DNA of 20,019 nucleotides from UHGV virus genome UHGV-1706396; one strand, written 5' to 3'. The stretch is from a virus. Within the stretch, counting starts at the first letter, position 1. Each line of letters opens with the position of its first letter. Made by a program: the position numbers and the translations under genes. Under the pieces are notes generated by a model. The model saw only the letters and a list, made by a program, of their open reading frames with translations, was not told the DNA's origin and searched no databases. Positions 429-20,019 of the stretch are shown here, in pieces.

Positions 429-815
429 ATGTCTGACAACAAGATTGAATTTATAGAAAGTCGCTATGCTGCTTTTATCGCAGGGCTGATTGAATCCTCA
501 CCTATGAGTCAGGCCCAAATAGCCAGACTTATTGGTTATAAAAATGCCAACAACCTTTCTTTAATTAAAAGTGGCAAAATTCCTTTGCCTATCGATAAGG
601 TTCGTCCGTTGGCGCTGGCGCTGGGTATTGAGCCAAGTCGTCTTATGATGATGGTGCTGGAAGAACGCCAACCTGAACTCGCAGCATTTTTATACAAAGA
701 AGGCACCGCTCCTCTTAACGAGGACGAAAAACAGGTTCTTGCTGCATATAACGAGCGATTCGGTAAAGAGAAAGGCGCATCACAAAAGGTTGTTGAGGCC
801 ATAAAGTCTCTATGA
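429..815 (+). CDS. Helix-turn-helix DNA-binding protein (Cro/CI-XRE-like phage regulator)
   Basis: 128-aa ORF; HTH-like segment SQAQIARLIGYKNANNLSLIKSGK; AAAGG RBS 8 nt upstream of ATG; 3' end overlaps 3' end of the convergent integrase gene by 6 nt. Confidence 0.6.
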   Translation: MSDNKIEFIESRYAAFIAGLIESSPMSQAQIARLIGYKNANNLSLIKSGKIPLPIDKVRPLALALGIEPSRLMMMVLEERQPELAAFLYKEGTAPLNEDEKQVLAAYNERFGKEKGASQKVVEAIKSL

Positions 816-1913
816 AAAATTTACACGAATAAGCTCTGTTGATAGACGATCTCCCTTGAATTTGTGGTCAATTTCGTCTAAATCCGGTTGCTCTACGATT
901 GATGCGATGTACGTCGAGAAACTTTCTAAGGCGTCTCGCATCTCGTCCATATAATCGTGCCGGTCGTAGACCCGATCTATCCCCTCAAGACTGTGGTTCA
1001 TGATTTTGCGTGATACCTCCTGGCTTATGCCTAATGCTGGGAAGTAACTACGCGCAGTACGGCGCAAATCTCGGGGTGTAAATGGCTCAAGCTCCATCAG
1101 TTCTGGTCTTTCCAGAATACGACGTAATGCCTGGGCTATTGCCACTTTGGACATAGGAAGGTCTTTCCCGATTTTTTTATTCGAAGGCACGAGCCACTGG
1201 CTGTCTTTACCGTATTCGAACAACTCTTCAATGCATGTGCGCATTAATGTGCTTAAAGGCAGCGAATGCTCACGTGCTGACTTGTTTCTCTTGCCTTGAT
1301 TCCAAACTCCACGCTTAAGATTGAACTCACTTTTTTTAGCCCGCAGTACTTCGTCAGGTCGTCTTGCTGATACAAGACACAGTCTGGCCGCCCATTTTGT
1401 ACCAGCGCACACATTGAAGTAGTCCCATATATTCCAGAACACCCATACCTCTGCGTCGGTCAGCTTCCGCTCGCGAGGTGTGGGCTTTGCGCCACCGGCA
1501 ACTTTGTTTAGTGACATATCGTTTAACGGTGACACGTCTATCATCCCCTGGAAGGCGCACCAGCTAAGGAACTGCTTCATCAGAGAGAAAACGCGGCGGC
1601 CCATAACAATTTTGCCATCCAATATTAGAGGGTTGACCAGTTGGTTCACCATGAACCTATTAATGTCACTTACTTTTACATCGGCAATGTGCGGCAAAAC
1701 ATGTATCAAAATACAATGAACAGCGATCTCTGGCCGACGTCTGGTTATCAGCAGAGATAAGCGAGTGAATAACATGAATGCGTCCGAGAATCTCATATCA
1801 TTGCTAACCTGCGAGATCATAACGGCCTGCATTTGAGATGCTCTTTCGAGATACTCAATCGCCTCTTTTGAGGTGTTCTCCGCAGCGCGTGCTCTGTCAA
1901 AGCTATTTTTCAT
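810..1913 (-). CDS. int: Tyrosine-type site-specific recombinase / phage integrase
   Basis: 367-aa ORF; C-terminal catalytic signature of the tyrosine recombinase family (VSARRPDEV ... HSLPLS ... RDLRRTARSY ... HSLEGIDRVYDRHDY, i.e. R..H-x-x-R..Y); GGTGA RBS about 9 nt upstream. Confidence 0.85.
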   Translation of the reverse strand: MKNSFDRARAAENTSKEAIEYLERASQMQAVMISQVSNDMRFSDAFMLFTRLSLLITRRRPEIAVHCILIHVLPHIADVKVSDINRFMVNQLVNPLILDGKIVMGRRVFSLMKQFLSWCAFQGMIDVSPLNDMSLNKVAGGAKPTPRERKLTDAEVWVFWNIWDYFNVCAGTKWAARLCLVSARRPDEVLRAKKSEFNLKRGVWNQGKRNKSAREHSLPLSTLMRTCIEELFEYGKDSQWLVPSNKKIGKDLPMSKVAIAQALRRILERPELMELEPFTPRDLRRTARSYFPALGISQEVSRKIMNHSLEGIDRVYDRHDYMDEMRDALESFSTYIASIVEQPDLDEIDHKFKGDRLSTELIRVNFS

Positions 1914-3632: not shown

Positions 3633-3719
3633 TGGCGGAGAGTAATGGAATCGAACCATCATCGCTTGCGCAATGGGACGGTTTTCAAGACCGCTTGAGC
3701 ACCATGCTCCCTACTCTCC
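3633..3719 (-). tRNA. tRNA-Ser (anticodon TGA), class II with long variable arm
   Basis: Hand fold of the minus strand: acceptor GGAGAGT/ACTCTCC, anticodon stem GCGGT/ACCGT with loop CTTGAAA, T-arm GATGG-TTCGATT-CCATT, encoded CCA. D-arm is atypical (short loop or 3-nt linker). Confidence 0.65.
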
Positions 3720-3905
3720 GGCCGTTGTGGTGGCCGGTACTGAATCTCCGGCATACGGTGCAGCCAATTAGGACTACGGACGATCACCGCTCGCGAAAGG
3801 GAAGGTTTGCGGCCGCATTTCCCTAACATCCAAGAAAGCTATCGCATCAGTCTGCGAATCCACCACAACGGAAAGAGCATTCACGTCTCGCGTGCCACCA
3901 CGAAT

Positions 3906-3929
3906 GGCAACTCAGAGAGTCGAACTCTG
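3906..3929 (-). other. tRNA-like 3' fragment (T-arm plus acceptor 3' strand) without a recognisable 5' half; pseudo-tRNA or possible att core
   Basis: Minus strand reads CAGAG-TTCGACT-CTCTG-AGTTGCC with conserved G53, T54 T55 C56, A58, C61, but no D-arm or anticodon arm could be folded upstream. Confidence 0.3.
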
Positions 3930-4387
3930 AAAATGCTCTTACCTGTTGTGTGCTGTGTCACTCCCTCCGCTATTACCTGGCTTTGCCTCGACCTTTTAGG
4001 TTGCGTCCGATGATAAACAGGGCTGTCGGAAATTTGTCTGTGACACAGCGATAAGAGAACTCGATGCATTTAAGCCAAGCCCCATATGGGAAGTTCTCTT
4101 ATCTGTTGTGCGCTCCGTTTCGTGGAGCTAACGGCGGGTGAACAGGCCGCACCAGGTTGGACATATTTCAGCGTTATGCTGTTGCAAGAGAGCCAAATTG
4201 TGATGGTCGGTGCTGAACTCCGACACAGGGTTGTAGCAAGCCCCGCAAAGCGCGCACTACTGTAGTTGCGGCACATCAGCCTGTGCATTCACCACAATGT
4301 TGAGAACACTGGTTGTCACGCTGCAACGCAACATTTATTCATAGATTGGGATATGACCCCGTTACGCCAATGTTCTCAATATTATGT

Positions 4388-4463
4388 TGGTGCCGGTTAA
4401 CGGACTTGAACCGCTGACCATTCGCTTACAAAGCGACTGCTCTACCAACTGAGCTAAACCGGC
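4388..4463 (-). tRNA. tRNA-Thr (anticodon TGT)
   Basis: 76 nt: acceptor GCCGGTT/AACCGGC, D-stem GCTC/GAGC, anticodon loop TTTGTAA (27-43 pair mismatched), T-arm AGCGG-TTCAAGT-CCGTT, encoded CCA. Confidence 0.8.
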
Positions 4464-4467
4464 AATT

Positions 4468-4554
4468 TGGTGGGGAGTGATGGAGTCGAACCACCCGAGT
4501 CGCAATGACAGTAGATTTACAGTCTACCCCGCTACCCCTACGGACTAACTCCCC
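4468..4554 (-). tRNA. tRNA-Tyr (anticodon GTA), long variable arm
   Basis: 87 nt: acceptor GGGGAGT/ACTCCCC, anticodon arm GTAGA-CTGTAAA-TCTAC, T-arm GGTGG-TTCGACT-CCATC, discriminator A, encoded CCA. Confidence 0.85.
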
Positions 4555-4559
4555 TAAAT

Positions 4560-4634
4560 TGGCGATGGTGGGTGGATTCGAACCACCGACCAGTTGGTTA
4601 ACAGCCAACTGCTCTACCGCTGAGCTACACCATC
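4560..4634 (-). tRNA. tRNA-Asn (anticodon GTT)
   Basis: 75 nt canonical cloverleaf: acceptor GATGGTG/CACCATC, D-stem GCTC/GAGC, anticodon arm GTTGG-CTGTTAA-CCAAC, T-arm GGTGG-TTCGAAT-CCACC, encoded CCA. Confidence 0.9.
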
Positions 4635-12608: not shown

Positions 12609-13376
12609 ATGGACGATTTATCGGTATACGCGAGATCATTGGATAAGGCTAAATACTATGTTTACTGTCTCTATGATACAGAAGACAAGATGAAAAGACC
12701 GTTTTACATAGGAAAAGGCAAATCGACTCGTTGTCTCGATCACATCAAGTATCCCGATGACTCTCCCAAATCCATGCGGATCAAAGAACTTTTGGCTAAT
12801 AAAAAATTAGGCATAGATATTCTTCGTCATGGTATGGATGAAACCACAGCCAAACTTGTTGAGGCGACATGCATCGACCTTATGGGGGTCGGAGAGCTTA
12901 CGAATAAGGTACGAGGAAGTGGTTCCATGATGGGCAGAATATCACTGGACGCCTACCATCACTTAGTGCTGCAAGAGGAAACTGAAATTGCTCCTGAGCA
13001 CGCCGGTCTTGCCTTCCTGCTAAACAGCACCTACAAGTCAGGAATGTCCGCTCTGGCATTATATGAAGCTACGCGTGGCGTATGGGCAAAGGTTCCAAGA
13101 GACGAGAATCTCAAATATGCCTACGCTACATATGGTGGGCTGATAATGGAAGTTTATCAGATTGAATGCTGGGTCAAAGCCGGTTCTCAGCAGTACTTTA
13201 CAAGGGATATAGCTCTTGGCCCCGACACAAAACGTTATGAATTTGTTGGCAGAATAGCCGATGAGCATATTAGAAAACTGTATGTAGGCAAATTAATCAA
13301 GAAGCCACCAAGCTACGGTAGCCCTTTTGTGAAGGTTGGGGTGGTTAGGACTGAACATAGTGTTAGCGCGGCATAA
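12609..13376 (+). CDS. GIY-YIG nuclease-domain protein with uncharacterised C-terminal domain (homing-endonuclease-like or defence nuclease)
   Basis: N-terminal YYVYCLYD...PFYIGKGKSTRCLDH matches the GIY-YIG core pattern (compare UvrC VY..YD..YIGKAK..R); lone plus-strand gene with its own terminator. Confidence 0.55.
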   Translation: MDDLSVYARSLDKAKYYVYCLYDTEDKMKRPFYIGKGKSTRCLDHIKYPDDSPKSMRIKELLANKKLGIDILRHGMDETTAKLVEATCIDLMGVGELTNKVRGSGSMMGRISLDAYHHLVLQEETEIAPEHAGLAFLLNSTYKSGMSALALYEATRGVWAKVPRDENLKYAYATYGGLIMEVYQIECWVKAGSQQYFTRDIALGPDTKRYEFVGRIADEHIRKLYVGKLIKKPPSYGSPFVKVGVVRTEHSVSAA

Positions 13377-14689: not shown

Positions 14690-14774
14690 TTTTAAAGTAA
14701 TTTTTGAGTCGAAAACTCAGTTTGAACAGAGGAGATTGATGGCCTTCCTACATCACGGCCATCAGGAGGAATAC

Positions 14775-15044
14775 ATGTCAGCACTAAAAAAGCAGCGCAT
14801 CGATTTGAGATTAACCGATGACGATAAAAGCATCATCGAGGAAGCTGCCGCAATGTCTAACCAGAGCATTACTCAGTTTATGGTTAGCAGTGCATCTGAA
14901 CGTGCCGTGAAAGTTATAGAGCAACACCGTAGACTAGTTCTGAATGAAGAATCCTGGAATCTGGTTATGGACGCTTTAAGCAATCCTCCGGCACCGAACG
15001 ACAAGCTGAAACGAGCTGCTGATCGTCTGAAAAGCATGGAGTAG
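14775..15044 (+). CDS. DUF1778-type antitoxin (TacA/AtaR-like) of a GNAT toxin-antitoxin pair
   Basis: Small ORF immediately upstream of the GNAT toxin gene. Start placed at the ATG at 14775, which has an AGGAGG RBS 5 nt upstream, rather than the TTG at 14736. Confidence 0.75.
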   Translation: MSALKKQRIDLRLTDDDKSIIEEAAAMSNQSITQFMVSSASERAVKVIEQHRRLVLNEESWNLVMDALSNPPAPNDKLKRAADRLKSME

Positions 15045-15051
15045 TTTACTC

Positions 15052-15573
15052 GTGGATAATATAAAGATAGAAATTTTCTCTGGAGAGAAAGATTATGATT
15101 TGAATGGTTTTGATTGCGGTGAAGAATCACTAAATGCCTTTTTAACCAACCACTTAAAAAGGCAGCATGAGGGAAAAATTCTTCGCGCTTATATGCTTTG
15201 CACTAAAGAAGACAGACCAAAAGTGTTAGGGTATTACACTTTGTCAGGCAGCTGCTTTGAAAAGGAGTCCTTACCTTCAAGAAGCCAGCAAAAGAAGGTA
15301 CCTTATCGGAATGTTCCAAGTGTTACTTTGGGCAGACTGGCTTTGGACAAATCTCTTCAAGGTCAAGGATTTGGCTCAATGCTTGTAACACACGCTATGC
15401 GTGTTGTGTATAATGCCTCTCTTGCTGTTGGTATTCATGGACTCTTCGTTGAGGCGTTGAATGATAAAGCTAAGGCGTTTTATAAAAGTCTGGGCTTTAT
15501 CCAGTTGATTGGAAACAACGAGCGATCTTTGTTCTATCCAACAAAATCTATCGAAAAATTGTTCGAAGAATAA
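15052..15573 (+). CDS. GNAT-family acetyltransferase toxin (TacT/AtaT-like)
   Basis: 173-aa ORF with GTG start 7 nt after the antitoxin stop; GNAT core VTLGRLALDKSLQGQGFGSMLV; closely resembles my recollection of E. coli AtaT (not verified). Confidence 0.8.
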   Translation: MDNIKIEIFSGEKDYDLNGFDCGEESLNAFLTNHLKRQHEGKILRAYMLCTKEDRPKVLGYYTLSGSCFEKESLPSRSQQKKVPYRNVPSVTLGRLALDKSLQGQGFGSMLVTHAMRVVYNASLAVGIHGLFVEALNDKAKAFYKSLGFIQLIGNNERSLFYPTKSIEKLFEE

Positions 15574-15604
15574 TGTACTCCCCTCAAATGAGGGGAACTT
15601 CGCA

Positions 15605-15820
15605 TCACCAACCGCAAACTCTCTCTCCCATCGTATTGTGAAAAAGGATTTGGCGTTCGGTTTCTTCGGTCATTACATCATTATTGCTGATATAGATAGG
15701 CTCAGCTCCATCGCAGAACAATACGCTGGCGGTTTGTGGTTTAATGACGCACCCACTTATCATACAACTCACGATGAACGGCAGAAGCATCTTTCTGACG
15801 TATTTTATTGCTCGTCTCAT
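15605..15820 (-). CDS. Putative o-spanin (Rz1-like outer-membrane lipoprotein), overlapping the i-spanin 3' end
   Basis: 71-aa ORF with basic n-region, hydrophobic core and lipobox ISGC; overlaps the i-spanin gene in another frame. Confidence 0.45.
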   Translation of the reverse strand: MRRAIKYVRKMLLPFIVSCMISGCVIKPQTASVLFCDGAEPIYISNNDVMTEETERQILFHNTMGERVCGW

Positions 15821-15992
15821 TCACCACTTCCACTGTGCTTTGAAGTCGTTTCCTGTCTTCCTGTTTTGCCTTCTCTTCTATTGCTCGTCGCGCCGCATTT
15901 CCGCCCATCGTGTAAGCGCCGACCAGAACGAAAAGAACGGCAGCCAGCGTAATCAAAGCAACTTTTAGCTTTGTCATCAGGCTGCCTAGCAT
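15741..15992 (-). CDS. Putative i-spanin (Rz-like)
   Basis: 83-aa ORF: N-terminal TM helix LKVALITLAAVLFVLVGAY then a charged periplasmic segment; directly downstream of the endolysin candidate. Confidence 0.5.
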   Translation of the reverse strand: MLGSLMTKLKVALITLAAVLFVLVGAYTMGGNAARRAIEEKAKQEDRKRLQSTVEVVNETSNKIRQKDASAVHRELYDKWVRH

Positions 15993-15993
15993 A

Positions 15994-16713
15994 TTAGACC
16001 ATCCCTTTCTGGTGTCGTCTTACCTGCGACCAGGCAATGAATCCGGCCACAACAATAGTGGCAATGCCGAAGATGATGCGTACTGTATCCCCGCTAGAGA
16101 TATGACCTTGTGCCTTATCCATAGCAGCGGAAACCTGCGGCATAACATCGGCCAGCTGCGCCAGACCAATACCTGCTGTAACAGTTGCGCCTGCAGTTTC
16201 TTTAGTTACAGGAACAGCCTTGACGGTTTTCACCGGCTTAACGACGCCAGCCCGACGCAGACCTTCCTCAATAACTTCTGCCGCATACCAGGTGTTCAGC
16301 GTTTTAAGCGGACCTCGGCCATTCTCGTGGCGAATGATTGCCTCAACCAAAGGTCGAAGGATGTCGTAATCATGCAGATCGATAAGCATGTCTGCGGTTA
16401 CACCAACGGCTTTAGACACCTCATTAATGTAGGCGTCAGTGTTGTTTTCATTCGGCGGTGCCCAACGTTCAATAACTTCACGAATGGTATCGATACTTGA
16501 GCCGTCTTTTGCGCGACGTTTGTCGTGGTAGGTAATTAGAGTCACCGCCAGCGCACGAATCCCCCAAACAGGGTCTTTAAACGTGCAAAAGCGCGGTTCG
16601 TCTGGATTCGCAACCAGACCTTGCCACGGTGATCCTTTATCAAGATTACCGGGGTTATTATTACGAATGCCTCTCGGAGTCTTCATCCTTGATCTCCTGT
16701 TATTGCAGTCCAT
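15994..16713 (-). CDS. Putative endolysin / cell-wall hydrolase with C-terminal hydrophobic segment
   Basis: 239-aa ORF between the holin-like and spanin genes; N-terminal GIRNNNPGNL motif; C-terminal hydrophobic stretch IIFGIATIVVAGFIAW. The enzymatic family was not identified. Confidence 0.45.
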   Translation of the reverse strand: MDCNNRRSRMKTPRGIRNNNPGNLDKGSPWQGLVANPDEPRFCTFKDPVWGIRALAVTLITYHDKRRAKDGSSIDTIREVIERWAPPNENNTDAYINEVSKAVGVTADMLIDLHDYDILRPLVEAIIRHENGRGPLKTLNTWYAAEVIEEGLRRAGVVKPVKTVKAVPVTKETAGATVTAGIGLAQLADVMPQVSAAMDKAQGHISSGDTVRIIFGIATIVVAGFIAWSQVRRHQKGMV

Positions 16714-17023
16714 TTTTTACGCCATACGCGGCTAACCCCAAAAGCAGTGCAGTAATAATGAACGACGTTATTTTAGAAACAATGCCGCCAAAGAACCCAC
16801 TGGAGATGGAATCTAACCGGTTAAGGAGTTTGTCCAGATTGGAGTGTTGAATACTATGTTGCGCCGGGGTCATATCACCAAAGTAGGTTTTCAGCTGATC
16901 ATTGACCTCCTGGCCAATTTCTTCACGTAGCTCTTTACCTAATTTGCCAACAACCTCCCGAGCAACGATCGCGGCAATACGCTCAACTTGCTCTGTTGTA
17001 ACGCCCGCCATCTCGTTCGACAT
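16700..17023 (-). CDS. Holin-like tail-anchored membrane protein
   Basis: Acidic soluble N-terminus and a single C-terminal TM (ITSFIITALLLGLAAYGV). Preferred start is the second ATG (17023) with a GGAGG RBS; the track start at 17035 lacks an RBS. Overlaps the endolysin start by 14 nt. Confidence 0.4.
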   Translation of the reverse strand: MSNEMAGVTTEQVERIAAIVAREVVGKLGKELREEIGQEVNDQLKTYFGDMTPAQHSIQHSNLDKLLNRLDSISSGFFGGIVSKITSFIITALLLGLAAYGVKNGLQ

Positions 17024-17104
17024 GTTTTCCTCCATGAAAAGTCAAATCGGGATGGCGGATTTATATCACATTTCACCCTTTTGTTGTAGGTGTGTACTTA
17101 CCTA

Positions 17105-17338
17105 TCATTCAGCATTGCAACGGACTGATGAGAAAGCACCTACTCCTACCCATCGCCAGTTATAGATGCTACCCGCTTTGTATAAGGTATAGTCGTTCAC
17201 TTTTTTAACAGCATATATGGGTATGACTGTCTCCTGTCCACCAATGATAGCCTCACCATAACATATAGGTGTCGGCAATTTCTGGCAGCCAGTAAGAGAG
17301 AGAACAACAGCTATTGTTAGAAATAATCTTTTCATCAT
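17105..17338 (-). CDS. Small lipoprotein, candidate superinfection-exclusion protein (Cor/Llp-like)
   Basis: 77-aa ORF; signal peptide MMKRLFLTIAVVLSLTGC with lipobox LTGC; sits between the tail-fibre genes and the lysis cassette, the typical Cor/Llp position. Confidence 0.55.
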   Translation of the reverse strand: MMKRLFLTIAVVLSLTGCQKLPTPICYGEAIIGGQETVIPIYAVKKVNDYTLYKAGSIYNWRWVGVGAFSSVRCNAE

Positions 17339-17345
17339 TTACTCA

Positions 17346-17954
17346 TCAGTTATACAGATTTCTATTTATTACCGGTACTCTGCCATTTACGCTAAAACTA
17401 TGGCCGCCATTAAGTTGGTTTACGAATATCGAGCTAACAGTATTTCCATATGCCGCATATCCATAAACCATTGTCATGGCTCCGCCCGGTACTGGAACAG
17501 CGAAAACATTCGCATATGTTGGGATTATCGCTGGTGGGTAATCAAAAACATGCCCTCCAGAGCTGTTCCACTCCGTATTATTAAGAAAGGTAAATGAAAG
17601 TGGGATATTTGCCGTATTATAGATTTCCTCCCCTTGTGCATTGAAAAAACTCATGCCCCAAGTTTCTTTTTTGGCTATACCTTTCGAAAATACGTATATC
17701 GTGGCACTAGAGTCGCTACCCTGACCTCCGAAACTGTAAATCACCTGGTTGTTACGCACTATTCTGTTGGCTATTAATGAAACAGCTTTCGAATAGGCGA
17801 CAAAAATCATCGGTGAACGATCTGGAGATATTTGGGTGTTAAACTCTGTCCCGCCGGACAAAGAAACAACCTGCTTTCTCTGAAAAACGATAGGAGACAA
17901 AGAAGGAGACATCCAGACCTTCCCGTCAGATCGATATATCTTGCTTCCGTACAT
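17346..17954 (-). CDS. Hypothetical tail-fibre-associated protein (202 aa)
   Basis: Gly/Ser-rich ORF coupled to the upstream 84-aa ORF (TAATG overlap), downstream of the tail fibre gene. Confidence 0.5.
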   Translation of the reverse strand: MYGSKIYRSDGKVWMSPSLSPIVFQRKQVVSLSGGTEFNTQISPDRSPMIFVAYSKAVSLIANRIVRNNQVIYSFGGQGSDSSATIYVFSKGIAKKETWGMSFFNAQGEEIYNTANIPLSFTFLNNTEWNSSGGHVFDYPPAIIPTYANVFAVPVPGGAMTMVYGYAAYGNTVSSIFVNQLNGGHSFSVNGRVPVINRNLYN

Positions 17955-18208
17955 TATTTTTGAAAAACCAATATGTTTAAATTGCCACTAGCTCCAGACC
18001 ATGAAATGGTATTTCCAGAAACCGTAAGACTTGTGTATTTCCCATTGGTTACGTCCATTATGTAATAGTCGATTCCCAATCCCGCCTCAACCTCATATGT
18101 TCTACTTCCAGAACCAGAGGGAGTAAAATAATCGAGGTAATAAACAGGGGCCAACGCATCGACCATCTCCTGTCTTGATGGCGACCAAACTTGTGCACCA
18201 TAGCTCAT
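17954..18208 (-). CDS. Hypothetical small protein (84 aa) downstream of the tail fibre
   Basis: ORF with AAGGA RBS 7 nt upstream of ATG. Confidence 0.5.
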   Translation of the reverse strand: MSYGAQVWSPSRQEMVDALAPVYYLDYFTPSGSGSRTYEVEAGLGIDYYIMDVTNGKYTSLTVSGNTISWSGASGNLNILVFQK

Positions 18209-18268: not shown

Positions 18269-20019
18269 TTATTCTTTAGGTGAATTTAACTTCGATTCAA
18301 GTTCCTCAACTCTTTTTGTCAGTTTCTGAATATGGTGAATAAGCGGGACAACCAGACGATCATACATGACACCTTCTGCGACCATCCCATTATCAGACGC
18401 TATACTTGGATCATCTTTGTCTGTAAGAGGACGCCAGTGAACATATTGCGGTGCTATTTCTCCGACTTCTTCTGCAATAAGGCCATAGTGCCCCCAATCT
18501 TTTCGGTCCGTTTCGCATGTAGATCGATACCATACGGGACGTAGTTTCAACACTTCGTCCGCGTACTTGTTCTCTAAAGACTCGATATCAGTTTTATATC
18601 TACGCGATGATGTCGAACGGAAAACCTTGTTATACCCAGCAATAGGGCTAACAAACATATTAGGGCTATCCGTAGTAGTCATGATGTCATAAATATACAA
18701 GTCGTAGCACGACACCATGTAAAACGCACCATCTAGATTCCCATTTTCCAACGCTCGTTTAGAAACATAATCGTTGAGTTTAGTATTTACTTCCCCAATG
18801 GTGTAAGCACCTAAATCCAGTGCGGTTAATGTAATATTCTTACTACCGTCAAACGCTACGCCGTTAATTGTACGTGCTGTTTGCAACTTGGTTGCTGTTG
18901 CAGCATTACCAGTAGTGTTCTGATTACCGGTCGTATTCACACCAGGTAAGTTAATATTGGCTGTACCGTTAAAACTAACACCACCGATAGTACGAGCCGT
19001 TTGTAACTTCGTGGCTGACGCCGCGTTTCCTGTTGTGTTCTGATTACCAGTCGTATTAACACCAGGCAAGTTAATATTCGCAGTACCATCAAAGCTCACA
19101 CCGCCGATAGTTCTTGCCGTCTGTAGTTTTGTAGCTGTAGCAGCATTACCCGTTGTGTTCTGATTACCGGTGGCATTGACACCTGGAATTGAGTCTTTGG
19201 ACGTATAAACTTGCGCCCACTCTGACCAACTAGCTGTATCAGTATCTCGTCGCGAACGTACATGTACAGGTGCATGAGCGCCACTTGTACCGCTCCAACC
19301 TATGAACAACTCGCCTTCACCAACGGCTGTTGCCCCCTTAAGATGAAGCACATTCCCGTAAGTCGAAGGATAGCCGTTGTTATATGCCTCGTACATCTGC
19401 AATCCAGTAGCAGCACCTTGCGTTGTGCCTGTGAGCGCAGTAACGCGTCCTCTGGACGTAATTGTTGGTATCGAAATATTCGCAGAGCCGTTAAACGACA
19501 CTCCGTTAATAGTTCTCGCAGTTTGCAACTTGGTCGCTGTAGCCGCGTTACCGGTAGTGTTCTGATTACCAGCAGCATTAACTCCAGGAAGATTAATGTT
19601 CGCAGTGCCATCGAAGCTAACACCACCGATGGTTCTTGCTGTCTGCAATTTAGTAGCTGTAGCAGCATTACCTGTGGTGCTTTGGTTGCCAGCTTTGTTA
19701 ACTCCGGGCAAGTCGATGTTGGCAGTTCCGTTAAATGAAACGCCACCAATCGTTCTTGCCGTTTGAAGTTTTGTAGCGGTTGCGGCATTACCAGTAGTGC
19801 TCTGATTGCCTGCCGTGTTTACACCAGGCAAATTTATGTTCGCAGATCCATCGAAGGCCACGCCACCGATAGTTCTTGCAGTCTGCAATTTCGTGGCGGT
19901 ACTCGCATTGCCATTCAATGAACCAGTTAATCCACCTGTAACTGACAACGGACCTGAAACCGTCCCTCCGGTTGTTGGCAGTGCTCCAATATCTGATGGT
20001 GTAGGTTTCTGATGTGAGC
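18269..20019 (-). CDS. Tail fibre protein, C-terminal part (gene continues beyond the right edge), with tandem fibre repeats and a C-terminal intramolecular chaperone-like domain
   Basis: The frame stays open from 19948 to the window end, so the track start (TTG) is an artefact. Repeats of ...GNQNTTGNAATATKLQTARTIGGVSFDGTANINLPGVN...; C-terminal ~130 aa (SRRYKTDIESLENKYADEVL...) resembles the autoproteolytic chaperone domain of phage tail fibres and endosialidases. Confidence 0.85.
   Translation of the reverse strand, partial: SHQKPTPSDIGALPTTGGTVSGPLSVTGGLTGSLNGNASTATKLQTARTIGGVAFDGSANINLPGVNTAGNQSTTGNAATATKLQTARTIGGVSFNGTANIDLPGVNKAGNQSTTGNAATATKLQTARTIGGVSFDGTANINLPGVNAAGNQNTTGNAATATKLQTARTINGVSFNGSANISIPTITSRGRVTALTGTTQGAATGLQMYEAYNNGYPSTYGNVLHLKGATAVGEGELFIGWSGTSGAHAPVHVRSRRDTDTASWSEWAQVYTSKDSIPGVNATGNQNTTGNAATATKLQTARTIGGVSFDGTANINLPGVNTTGNQNTTGNAASATKLQTARTIGGVSFNGTANINLPGVNTTGNQNTTGNAATATKLQTARTINGVAFDGSKNITLTALDLGAYTIGEVNTKLNDYVSKRALENGNLDGAFYMVSCYDLYIYDIMTTTDSPNMFVSPIAGYNKVFRSTSSRRYKTDIESLENKYADEVLKLRPVWYRSTCETDRKDWGHYGLIAEEVGEIAPQYVHWRPLTDKDDPSIASDNGMVAEGVMYDRLVVPLIHHIQKLTKRVEELESKLNSPKE
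18838..19213. repeat. Tandem ~96-bp coding repeats inside the tail fibre gene (second repeat block)
   Basis: Three to four imperfect in-frame 32-codon units encoding the TATKLQTARTI motif. Confidence 0.7.
19456..20019. repeat. Tandem ~96-bp coding repeats inside the tail fibre gene (first repeat block, runs to the window edge)
   Basis: At least five imperfect in-frame repeat units; the two blocks are separated by a non-repetitive domain. Confidence 0.7.

Follow-up and report, generated by a model that had tools for sequence, protein, structure and literature searches.

The cassette and its origin

Do the minus-strand genes at 15605-17035 of the window (the whole 20,019-nt stretch of viral genome UHGV-1706396) form a lysis cassette, and, if so, how would an endolysin anchored by its C terminus reach the murein, and with what partner? 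Four minus-strand open reading frames (ORFs) occupy this interval, namely 17035..16700 (111 aa), 16713..15994 (239 aa), 15992..15741 (83 aa), and 15820..15605 (71 aa). Each of the four proteins matched a PHROG family (E between 1e-24 and 1e-88), and all four genes are conserved in related phage-plasmids, which argues that they are real genes rather than chance ORFs; in Pfam, none of the four proteins matched a significant family. The window shares 97.5% DNA identity with Escherichia phage Cyrano, whose record labels the same four genes Holin, Endolysin, Rz, and Rz1, and 82% with Salmonella phage SSU5, whose record carries holin (putative), endolysin, and spanin labels on these genes. The gene order proposed in the first-pass annotation, a holin-like gene followed by endolysin, i-spanin, and overlapping o-spanin genes, is thus that of a lysis cassette by both the PHROG matches and the Cyrano and SSU5 annotations. 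Moreover, hydropathy analysis bore out the unusual topology described there, in which a small C-terminally anchored protein accompanies an endolysin with a C-terminal segment instead of an N-terminal signal-arrest-release (SAR) segment.

In our best explanation, which we consider probable as a whole, an SSU5-like temperate phage-plasmid carries its late lysis cassette at 15577-17068 (minus strand), and this cassette operates by the mechanism set out below. No second endolysin was annotated within the first 100 kb of the 103-kb SSU5 genome, and none was detected among 25 window ORFs scanned (16 against Pfam and 17 against PHROGs), so that a canonical endolysin elsewhere, which the first-pass annotation had named as grounds for abandoning its reading, was found in neither place.

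An Enc34/M4Lys-type endolysin, predicted to be a glycosidase

The second gene and its enzyme domain are as follows:
15994..16686, minus strand: gene 2, 230-aa Enc34/M4Lys-type endolysin (PDB 7q47, E=1.5e-54; phrog_873 'endolysin', E=1e-88)
16237..16686, minus strand: catalytic domain of the PHA02564 family, residues 1-150, an all-helical relative of the lysozyme alpha-lobe

While the gene 2 ORF encodes 239 aa from its first ATG (16713), the likely start is the second ATG (16686), which gives 230 aa; AGGAG lies 7 nt upstream of this codon, and both the 693-nt endolysin coding sequence in Cyrano and SSU5 and the 230-aa homologue clusters agree with it. The profile search proposed earlier for the 239-aa protein returned phrog_873 and no significant Pfam family, and the phmmer match to PDB 7Q47 spanned residues 10-160 of the 239-aa form. 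The GIRNNNPGNL motif (residues 15-24 of that form), for which the first-pass annotation could name no family, belongs to PHA02564, the family of Enc34 ORF39 (PDB 7Q47).

The catalytic domain contains the GIRNNNPGN motif together with Trp75, Tyr86, and Glu121 (230-aa numbering; Glu121 codon, 16324-16326). These three residues align opposite Enc34 Trp79, Tyr95, and Glu131, respectively, and all three are invariant in 34 homologues; in Enc34, Glu131 is catalytic, and Tyr95 and Trp79 position the substrate (PMC8943055). An AF2 model of the protein reached a pLDDT of ~84-97 over most of the catalytic domain, and its Foldseek comparison with 7q47_B gave E=1e-15, a target-normalised TM-score of 0.82, and 59% identity. 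The gene 2 product thereby resembles the Enc34, M4Lys, and Siskin enzymes in having the same Glu/Tyr/Trp in a catalytic domain that is 58-59% identical to the one crystallised; across the entire protein, it shares 56% identity with the endolysin of the chi-like phage FSL SP-088. We conclude that gene 2 encodes an Enc34/M4Lys-type endolysin, predicted from its sequence to be a glycosidase; M4Lys itself has N-acetylglucosaminidase activity (PMC7143992). A structural family lacking hydrolase activity, the other finding that would have spoken against the original reading, was not what emerged, since the family is one of proven peptidoglycan hydrolases (PMC8943055; PMC7143992).

A conserved C-terminal membrane module

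The C-terminal part of the endolysin contains two elements:
16117..16197, minus strand: proximal C-terminal helix, residues 164-190, weakly hydrophobic (mean Kyte-Doolittle value, 0.94)
15997..16083, minus strand: distal strong transmembrane (TM) helix, residues 202-222 (Kyte-Doolittle maximum, 2.07), with the basic tail RRHQKGMV

The hydrophobic stretch noted earlier at the endolysin C terminus is present, but it is not a single stretch; it is part of a conserved module consisting of a helix, a TM segment, and a basic tail. Strong TM character is confined to residues 208-231 of the 239-aa form, and a SAR domain is absent, the first 30 residues containing no hydrophobic window above 1.1. The proximal helix is 52% Gly/Ala/Ser/Thr, and its charges sum to about -2; from this composition, it may have an amphipathic or SAR-like character. 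Five of its residues (A167, G174, Q177, P183, and A188) are invariant in the 34 homologues, as are P159, T161, and E163 of the PVTKET motif that precedes it. Along the protein, the charge runs from +2 in the linker through -2 in the proximal helix and ~0 in the loop to +2 in the tail (family mean of the tail, +2.2), an order that fits an N-in/C-in hairpin.

In a tblastn search, the last 81 aa of gene 2 matched 166 phage records, with identities of 52% to M4Lys of BSPM4, 52% to Chi, and 49% to Enc34; the endolysin thus shares with Enc34 and M4Lys a homologous two-helix membrane module (49-52% identity). Mean column identity was 0.66 across the C-terminal 85 residues versus 0.71 across the enzyme domain, and this near-equal conservation, together with the invariant P159, T161, and E163, argues for a specific function of the module beyond anchoring. 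C-terminal TM forms of this endolysin class were likewise seen in prophages of the Stenotrophomonas/Lysobacter group and in others assigned to Pasteurellaceae, Alcaligenaceae, Alphaproteobacteria, and Bdellovibrionales.

Gene 1 encodes a small C-terminally anchored protein

Upstream of the endolysin gene lie the following:
16700..17023, minus strand: gene 1, 107-aa membrane protein with a C-terminal anchor (phrog_5093, E=8e-69)
16715..16798, minus strand: its single C-terminal TM helix, approximately residues 76-103, followed by 4-8 residues
16844..16858, minus strand: HxxxH, His56 to His60, within YFGDMTxxQHxxQHxxLDKLL in the soluble part directly before the TM helix

From the upstream ATG (17035), the gene 1 ORF encodes 111 aa; the second ATG (17023), giving 107 aa, is the likely start, with GGAGG at 17033-17029, 5 nt upstream, and with agreement from the 324-nt coding sequence in Cyrano and SSU5. 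A dual-start holin/antiholin arrangement (MEENM-SNEM) was considered and rejected, as the upstream ATG lies within a conserved Shine-Dalgarno sequence, cATGGAGG; a Providencia relative has a stop codon after this ATG, and another relative has ACG in its place.

The protein matched phrog_5093 over 107 of 107 profile positions. Its residues 1-84 are acidic (14 D/E versus 8 K/R; pI 4.7), and its only strongly hydrophobic stretch is C-terminal, with 19-residue Kyte-Doolittle windows exceeding 1.6 when they begin at residues 80-89 in the 111-aa numbering (maximum, 2.02). Charge counts and hydropathy therefore agree with the earlier description of the putative holin as an acidic soluble N-terminal domain followed by a single C-terminal TM segment. 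Among 39 divergent relatives (20-56% identity), all of which match phrog_5093, the position of the C-terminal TM segment is kept, with a mean of 9.8 residues beyond the TM core, and the only invariant columns are G49, H56, and H60; the gene 1 protein itself shows the FGxM..H...H motif and then the single C-terminal TM segment. Pfam gave no match for the gene 1 protein and no consistent match for the 39 relatives. When 1.84 billion representative proteins were searched with a profile, there were 60 hits, mostly of ~95-145 aa with one C-terminal TM segment. The AF2 model of the 107-aa protein was of low confidence (pLDDT 46.6), and the positive-inside signal of the family was a weak difference (K+R of 2.15 in the N-flank versus 1.21 in the C-tail).

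With one TM segment at its extreme C terminus and only 4-8 residues beyond, the gene 1 protein does not have a canonical holin layout when compared with (i) class I holins, with three TM segments, (ii) class II holins, with two, (iii) T4 T, with one TM segment and a large periplasmic C-terminal domain, and (iv) the 'class IV' layout proposed for Chi and Siskin, with an N-terminal TM segment, N-out/C-in. Nor did it show homology to the three-TM holin of D3112 or to gp35 of chi-like phages. Its closest known analogue, in architecture only, is the 110-aa N4 gp63, a C-terminally anchored 'class III' pinholin shown experimentally to be such (PMC12642591; bioRxiv 10.1101/2025.11.12.688109). Both are ~110 aa long, are encoded upstream of an endolysin, and begin with an extended helical domain that is predicted to face the cytoplasm; both also place the TM segment similarly (residues 76-103 of 107 here versus 76-100 of 110 in gp63), with very few residues after it. 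Homology between phrog_5093 and gp63 was not detected by hmmsearch (not significant), hhalign (probability 0.7%), or blastp (no match). Furthermore, N4 combines gp63 with a SAR endolysin and the two-TM regulator gp62, whereas the present cassette encodes no separate two-TM protein, and its endolysin bears a membrane module at the C terminus. The gene 1 product is a probable holin, pinholin, or lysis-timing protein; as 'the holin' it is putative, by position only.

phrog_5093 in distant lysis cassettes

Contexts of distant phrog_5093 members were obtained through exact-protein look-ups, scans of viral and metagenome contigs having returned almost only SSU5-like elements. In six independent contigs, the gene immediately after the phrog_5093 member encodes a different type of endolysin (Peptidase_M15-like in five and GH24 in one), which supports a lysis role for the family. 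The two genes overlap by 1-4 nt in all five of these contigs with called genes, and a candidate inner-membrane spanin comes next in three of the six, with a PHROG spanin match shown for one. Their endolysins are soluble and are accompanied by a second protein with two TM helices, which could be the true holin there. This two-TM protein showed no homology to N4 gp62, nor did the endolysin C-terminal module of gene 2 to the separate two-TM protein of the other phrog_5093 cassettes (hhalign probability <=0.1% in both comparisons). phrog_5093, which carries no function label in PHROGs, is an unstudied, C-terminally anchored family that heads lysis cassettes with three endolysin types.

We put forward only tentatively a broader reading, in which phrog_5093 would represent an unrecognised, widespread N-in/C-out class of holin or timing protein whose HxxxH serves in sensing or oligomerisation, and which always works with a second, two-helix membrane element; that element would be separate in some cassettes and fused to the endolysin in SSU5-like elements and many other prophages. 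If true, the 'TM endolysin' would be a holin-partner fusion, and the gene pair would show how a C-terminally anchored endolysin reaches the murein.

Spanins

The remaining two genes are as follows:
15741..15992, minus strand: i-spanin, 83 aa (phrog_1026 'Rz-like spanin', E=4e-24; Rz spanin in Cyrano)
15605..15820, minus strand: o-spanin lipoprotein, 71-aa precursor (phrog_1275 'Rz-like spanin', E=1e-24)

The i-spanin has an N-terminal TM segment within residues 1-34 and a short charged periplasmic domain, and the o-spanin precursor opens with a basic n-region, followed by a hydrophobic core and then the lipobox ISG|C, whose cysteine is Cys24; the mature form has 48 aa. Since the two genes share 80 nt in different frames, with the o-spanin gene beginning within the i-spanin gene and extending beyond its end, the first-pass wording 'embedded or overlapping' holds for the overlap and not for the embedding. 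By these sequence features, the pair is a two-component spanin of overlapped architecture; the SSU5 o-spanin has been placed in the Chi/Enc34 family (PMC6139136).

Proposed mechanism and alternatives

In gene 2, a basic linker joins the predicted PHA02564 glycosidase domain to the C-terminal membrane module. In the mechanism that we favor, (i) the enzyme would build up at the inner membrane, retained by this module, with its catalytic domain held away from the murein, most likely in the cytoplasm in an N-in/C-in hairpin; (ii) the module would be needed for lysis and, on overexpression, would be enough for it without holin or Sec, as has been shown for homologues; (iii) the gene 1 protein, predicted to lie N-in/C-out with its acidic helical domain in the cytoplasm and its TM segment at the C terminus, would set the timing, either by making a lethal membrane lesion or pinhole or by regulating the membrane module of the endolysin; and (iv) once the murein is cut, the i-spanin/o-spanin pair would disrupt the outer membrane, as suggested by family membership. 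For all SSU5-like lysis genes, the functions proposed at every step are carried over from 49-56% identical homologues or from analogues. M4Lys alone lyses E. coli, its TM domain is required, and azide has no blocking effect (PMC7143992); with Enc34, full-length protein is toxic, and cells with a permeabilised outer membrane are lysed by the catalytic domain (PMC8943055). For topology, the Siskin authors predicted N-in/C-in and the M4Lys authors a periplasmic N terminus (PMC7143992), and the Enc34 authors themselves raise the question of how a C-terminally anchored enzyme crosses the inner membrane (PMC8943055). In chi-like phages, the small membrane protein encoded upstream was not lytic alone and was dispensable for M4Lys lysis (PMC7143992), and the partner may therefore be a regulator rather than a holin.

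Gene 2 might instead be, in effect, a holin-endolysin fusion that lyses unaided, with gene 1 slowing or tuning it as an antiholin or a regulator of lysis and forming no hole, a reading that we regard as possible but doubtful. Lysis by M4Lys alone would fit it, as would the bacteriostatic effect of the M4Lys TM by itself, the slightly slower lysis when the upstream membrane protein is co-expressed with M4Lys (PMC7143992), and the layout of the module, which resembles a class II holin or pinholin (weak first helix, strong second TM segment, basic tail). Moreover, a small protein with a single C-terminal TM segment precedes 17 of 53 TM-bearing versus 2 of 31 TM-less endolysin genes in a crude neighbour survey (Fisher p=0.007, ignoring phylogeny). 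However, phrog_5093 also heads cassettes with soluble endolysins, which have no TM module to regulate; its conserved first position with a 1-4 nt endolysin overlap is the typical holin position; and N4 gp63, the only tested protein of gene 1 architecture, is a pinholin (PMC12642591). The small single-TM proteins of the survey fall into at least six unrelated sequence groups. The anchored proteins upstream of TM endolysins in Alphaproteobacteria, Alcaligenaceae, and others proved by hmmsearch not to be phrog_5093 and are analogues.

It is unlikely, in our estimation, that the endolysin is exported, its distal TM segment acting as a reverse signal-anchor (N-out/C-in) that tethers an inactive periplasmic enzyme until gene 1 depolarisation frees or activates it, in a mirror image of the SAR-endolysin/pinholin system. 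While the basic tail beyond the TM segment suits a cytoplasmic C terminus, the basic (+2) linker ahead of the proximal helix disfavors export; and while Phobius and Phyre2 place the M4Lys N terminus in the periplasm, azide did not stop M4Lys lysis (PMC7143992). The Enc34 authors speculated on SAR-like tethering with a pinholin, yet no known pathway moves a folded, hydrophilic N-terminal domain of ~160 residues without a signal peptide (PMC8943055). The pinholin identity of the gene 1 analogue N4 gp63 (PMC12642591) would also suit export, as would the unrelated GH24 endolysin LysAP of Acidovorax phage AP1, which has a C-terminal TM segment needed for localisation and reportedly uses Sec (PMC8879335).

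It is highly improbable that gene 2 encodes, instead of an endolysin, a murein hydrolase associated with the virion and used in ejection. The catalytic domain does form the N terminus of proteins of the internal virion, the core, and the tape measure (phrog_7182, phrog_2276, and phrog_992; PDB 9vvp Gp29; and T7-like 'internal virion protein with endolysin domain' records), and the provisional name of the family is 'virion protein'. However, the gene 2 product is small and stand-alone, has the membrane module of M4Lys and Enc34, and is encoded away from the structural module, with the holin-like gene on one side and the spanin genes on the other; moreover, no other endolysin is annotated in the first 100 kb of SSU5, and homologues lyse from within (PMC7143992).

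Relation to known systems

As in chi-like phages, the endolysin gene in the favored lysis-cassette reading lies between a small membrane protein gene and an overlapped spanin pair, and the o-spanin family is common to both. Unlike the virulent chi-like phages (~59 kb), the present element is a phage-plasmid of ~108 kb, and its upstream partner is unrelated, with a C-terminal TM segment here and an N-terminal one in chi-like phages. The cassette also parallels SAR endolysin/pinholin systems (phage 21 R21/S21-68 and P1 Lyz) in having a membrane-tethered enzyme, a presumed small membrane-protein trigger, and, in the proximal helix, the Gly/Ala/Ser/Thr richness of SAR domains; holin-free lysis on overexpression is likewise common to SAR systems and the Enc34/M4Lys-type class (PMC8943055). 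Unlike SAR endolysins, the gene 2 protein has a C-terminal anchor, which precludes anchor-driven Sec export of the catalytic domain, and a different catalytic fold. It shares a C-terminal TM segment with LysAP, where this segment is required for lysis, but LysAP differs in its unrelated catalysis, its single-TM anchor, and its reported Sec-dependent export (PMC8879335).

The unusual cassette described in the first-pass annotation is real, but the non-canonical mechanism suggested for it is not new, having been reported for 49-56% identical homologues; it was published for Siskin in 2019, M4Lys in 2020 (PMC7143992), and Enc34 in 2022 (PMC8943055). The cassette is non-canonical yet largely described before. 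Three modest points are added here, and they do not overturn current models: the Enc34/M4Lys-type class extends beyond chi-like phages and supplies the endolysin of medically relevant SSU5/pHCM2-type phage-plasmids; conservation of its C-terminal module comes close to that of the active-site domain; and the partner comes from an unstudied C-terminally anchored family. Enc34 and M4Lys are under engineering as enzybiotics against Gram-negative bacteria.

Boundaries of the cassette

Two elements flank the four genes:
17060..17068, minus strand: candidate extended -10-like element TGATATAAA, read from the sequence, 37 nt upstream of the start codon
15577..15598, minus strand: hairpin terminator ending the cassette, a 9-bp stem with 5 G-C pairs, then a T-rich tail

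A sigma-70 consensus scan that required a -35 hexamer found no promoter. TGATATAAA might possibly act as the cassette promoter; ATATAAA or TATAAA occurs at an equal distance in SSU5, Cyrano, and a Xenorhabdus relative. At the other end, the hairpin lies between the lysis cassette and a convergent toxin gene.

Organization of the lysis cassette

Four consecutive minus-strand ORFs occupy positions 15605-17035 in the ORF listing:
17035..16700, minus strand, holin-like ORF, 111 aa
16713..15994, minus strand, endolysin ORF, 239 aa
15992..15741, minus strand, i-spanin ORF, 83 aa
15820..15605, minus strand, o-spanin ORF, 71 aa

The first-pass annotation had read these ORFs as a lysis cassette of unusual membrane topology, and this topology is real, with a C-terminally anchored small protein encoded ahead of an endolysin that carries a C-terminal TM. 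The cassette is non-canonical; its endolysin class is published, and near-identical GenBank records already carry annotations for it. At the nucleotide level the window shares 97.5% identity with Escherichia phage Cyrano and 82% with Salmonella phage SSU5, both SSU5/pHCM2-type phage-plasmids of ~105-110 kb, in which the four genes are labelled Holin, Endolysin, Rz spanin, and Rz1 spanin (Cyrano) or putative holin, endolysin, and Rz-like spanins (SSU5).

All four ORFs were confirmed, but the first two are probably shorter than first taken, encoding 107 and 230 aa. GGAGG (17033-17029) lies 5 nt before ATG 17023 in the holin-like gene, and AGGAG lies 7 nt before ATG 16686 in the endolysin gene; the resulting lengths are those annotated in Cyrano and SSU5, as well as in hundreds of database homologs. 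ATG 17035 sits inside a conserved cATGGAGG Shine-Dalgarno element, a stop codon comes directly after it in a Providencia relative, and another relative has ACG in its place; we therefore rejected it as a conserved dual start. The cassette ends in a terminator hairpin at 15598-15577. An extended -10-like element, TGATATAAA (17060-17068, minus strand), precedes the start codon of the holin-like gene by 37 nt and is possibly a late promoter without a -35 hexamer; TATAAA is kept at the same distance from this start in SSU5, Cyrano, and the Xenorhabdus relative.

Identity of the endolysin

The endolysin had no match in a Pfam scan. It belongs to phrog_873 'endolysin' (1e-88, PHROGs) and, in a PDB sequence search, matched 7Q47, the catalytic domain of the Hafnia phage Enc34 endolysin, with E=1.5e-54. 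Its GIRNNNPGN segment, which the first-pass annotation could not assign to a family, is the N-terminal signature of PHA02564 (provisional; also 'virion protein / structural protein P5'). An AlphaFold model, built from an input alignment of 34 homologs, showed a pLDDT of ~84-97 over most of the enzyme domain and a target-normalized TM-score of 0.82 against 7Q47. In the same 34 homologs, G6, R8, N11, P12, G13, and N14 of the signature are invariant, as are E121, Y86, and W75, which align with Enc34 Glu131 (catalytic), Tyr95, and Trp79 (both placing the substrate), respectively (PMC8943055).

The PHA02564 domain also occurs (i) alone, as the endolysin of D3112-like phages, adjoining a classical three-TM holin, and (ii) N-terminally in internal virion, core, and tape-measure proteins. 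A match to a structural or virion family devoid of peptidoglycan-hydrolase activity had been proposed as evidence against an endolysin; the domain is indeed common to virion proteins, but it is a proven murein hydrolase, and the lysis-cassette context together with the membrane module places the 239-aa ORF in the endolysin subgroup. As for a canonical endolysin elsewhere, none is annotated in SSU5 positions 1-100,000, and a scan of 25 window ORFs (Pfam, PHROGs) revealed none.

The full-length protein is 56% identical to a chi-like endolysin, and its last 81 residues alone matched 166 phage records, with identities of 52% to BSPM4 M4Lys, 52% to Chi, and 49% to Enc34; both halves are therefore homologous to studied proteins. 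This C-terminal module comprises (i) a basic linker with a PVTKET motif, in which P159, T161, and E163 are invariant; (ii) a weakly hydrophobic helix, residues 164-190, with a mean KD of 0.94, 52% Gly/Ala/Ser/Thr, and a charge of ~-2; (iii) a short loop with SSG; and (iv) a strong TM, residues 202-222, with a KD maximum of 2.07, followed by a basic tail of ~+2. The mean column identity of the C-terminal part is 0.66 versus 0.71 for the enzyme domain, which argues for a role of the module beyond anchoring.

Bai et al. (2020) found that M4Lys by itself lyses E. coli, that this lysis is insensitive to azide and depends on the C-terminal TM, which alone is bacteriostatic, and that the truncated enzyme cleaves murein as an N-acetylglucosaminidase; the membrane protein encoded upstream was not lytic and was dispensable (PMC7143992). 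Cernooka et al. (2022) described the structure and activity of the Enc34 catalytic domain and the toxicity of the full-length protein (PMC8943055). A C-terminal TM is also described for the unrelated GH24 endolysin of phage AP1 (PMC8879335). The window enzyme thus belongs to a published, structurally characterized class, and its topology, although unusual, had already been described.

The holin-like protein and phrog_5093

The holin-like protein is the less well-understood component of the cassette. It had no match in a Pfam scan and belongs to phrog_5093, labelled 'unknown function', which among GenBank phages is found in only 12 records, all SSU5-like. A word-indexed search returned only relatives of at least 59% identity, and a profile search of 1.84 billion representative proteins gave 60 matches at E<=1e-3, most of them ~95-145 aa long with one C-terminal TM. 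We aligned 39 of these matches (20-56% identity to the window protein), all of which match phrog_5093. The sole invariant residues, G49, H56, and H60, lie in the motif YFGDMTxxQHxxQHxRLDKLLxxxDxxSxxFWG, and the TM comes next.

In all six independent contigs obtained by context look-ups of distant phrog_5093 members, the member immediately precedes a different type of endolysin, with a 1-4 nt overlap of the two genes in 5/5 contigs with called genes. Five of these endolysins are Peptidase_M15-like and one is a GH24 lysozyme; each is soluble and lacks both a SAR segment and a C-terminal TM. Behind the endolysin, five contigs encode a small membrane protein (a conserved two-TM protein in four), and an N-terminal-TM protein occupies the i-spanin position in three, one of which matches a PHROG spanin family. 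The fixed first position in front of interchangeable endolysin modules supports well, by association, a role of phrog_5093 in lysis, whichever membrane protein makes the hole.

The closest precedent is N4 gp63, a 110-aa, C-terminally anchored protein with a cytoplasmic N-terminal helical domain, which is experimentally a pinholin and is paired with the two-TM regulator gp62 (2025 preprint, PMC12642591). The gp63 TM (residues 76-100) matches the TM position of the window protein near-exactly, but the two proteins share no detectable sequence homology. The two-TM protein of the distant cassettes (~72-90 aa; …TQTWLTIFVTTIYN…KDYIFAVGPINTMV…; comparison loci L170 3255-3473, L323 832-1059, L325 3746-4018, and L326 3833-4105) had no PHROG or Pfam match; candidate roles for it are those of a holin or of a partner analogous, but not homologous, to gp62. 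In RefSeq and phrog_7686 the chi-like putative holin gp35 of Salmonella phage FSL SP-088 (L003 2150-2488; 112 aa, TM at residues 20-42) carries the label 'Rz-like spanin', probably an annotation error, since the genome papers treat it as a holin.

Survey of PHA02564 endolysin neighborhoods

We surveyed 80 fetched loci with catalytic-domain relatives, plus six earlier loci, using a simple ORF and hydropathy script. A C-terminal TM was scored in 53 of the 86 homologs, by fixed thresholds that miss TM helices and leave the chi-like endolysin itself under the cut-off. The assigned hosts of TM-bearing homologs include Pasteurellaceae, Alcaligenaceae, many Alphaproteobacteria, Bdellovibrionales, Stenotrophomonas, and Lysobacter, so the class extends well beyond 'Chivirus and some relatives'. 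Small proteins (<=160 aa) with one C-terminal TM precede 17/53 TM-bearing versus 2/31 TM-less homologs (Fisher p=0.007, uncorrected for phylogeny), a suggestive association. The 17 proteins form six sequence groups, with no matches among the groups or to phrog_5093. In prophages assigned to Alphaproteobacteria, Bdellovibrionales, and Alcaligenaceae, the gene just ahead of a TM-bearing PHA02564 endolysin can encode an 89-118-aa protein from one of at least four mutually unrelated families, each with an N-terminal part resembling a coiled coil and one TM at the C-terminus (upstream genes of L021, L025, L030, L036, L039, L047, and L054; L046, L048-L050; L008 2205-2504; L058).

Proposed mechanism

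By analogy with its homologs, the window endolysin would be muralytic and, on overexpression, would cause TM-dependent lysis without holin or Sec. We infer that its C-terminal module holds it at the inner membrane with the catalytic domain in the cytoplasm; an N-in/C-in hairpin would fit because the linker and tail are basic and the loop is neutral to acidic. The gene-1 protein, N-in/C-out, would time the loss of membrane integrity and thereby give the enzyme access to murein, and the spanins would act last, completing lysis. There are two main alternatives. In one, an exported enzyme is tethered in the periplasm and freed by a pinholin; the Enc34 authors, who stated the translocation mechanism to be unknown, speculated on SAR-like tethering with a pinholin (PMC8943055). 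In the other, the endolysin is a self-sufficient holin-endolysin fusion, with gene 1 as antiholin. Family-level features that could guide experiments are the invariant HxxxH, the occurrence alongside three types of endolysin, and the C-terminally anchored partners that recur.

Spanins and flanking genes

The i-spanin has an N-terminal TM, the o-spanin has a lipobox (ISG|C24), and their genes overlap by 80 nt. The pair is very short (i-spanin periplasmic part, ~55 aa; mature o-spanin, 48 aa); lambda Rz/Rz1 are much longer. In a published spanin census, the SSU5 o-spanin falls within the Chi/Enc34 family (PMC6139136). In place of the three small genes found at 17105-18208 in the window, the Providencia and Xenorhabdus relatives (L005, L006) have two to three unidentified genes after the endolysin; in the Providencia relative these genes separate the endolysin from a candidate spanin.

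The rest of the window fits an SSU5/pHCM2-type backbone, with a tyrosine recombinase, glutaredoxin, four tRNAs, DNA ligase, primase, DnaB-like helicase, ParA, a ParE/RelE-like toxin gene (so annotated in Cyrano), and a TacA/GNAT-toxin pair, and with Cor, two small PHROG-labelled membrane proteins, and a tail fiber on the other side of the cassette:
810-1913, minus strand, tyrosine-recombinase/integrase-like gene (phrog_1)
3633-4634, minus strand, tRNA genes Ser-TGA, Thr-TGT, Tyr-GTA, and Asn-GTT in an otherwise ORF-poor stretch
12609-13376, plus strand, LEM-3-like GIY-YIG nuclease-domain protein (PF22945, E=5.5e-07; also phrog_5356)
14736-15573, plus strand, TacA-like antitoxin (PF08681, E=2e-26) and GNAT acetyltransferase toxin (KacT-type in Cyrano)
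17105-18208, minus strand, three small genes between tail fiber and cassette: Cor superinfection-exclusion lipoprotein (phrog_1119), phrog_425 'membrane associated protein', and phrog_557 'outer membrane protein'
18269-19948, minus strand, tail-fiber ORF with many tandem ~44-aa units (…GNAATATKLQTARTIGGVSFDGTANINLPGVN…) and a C-terminal Peptidase_S74 intramolecular chaperone domain

The phrog_1 gene and the GIY-YIG protein lie in the phage-plasmid replication and partition region, and in the region matching the tRNA cluster the SSU5 record annotates tRNA-Asn only. The TacA/GNAT pair, convergent with the cassette and sharing the hairpin at 15577-15598 with it, is present in Cyrano, and SSU5 has other genes at that position. 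The three-gene set at 17105-18208 is the SSU5 arrangement and is absent in Cyrano, whose nucleotide similarity to the window ends at ~17106 and whose tail fiber differs.
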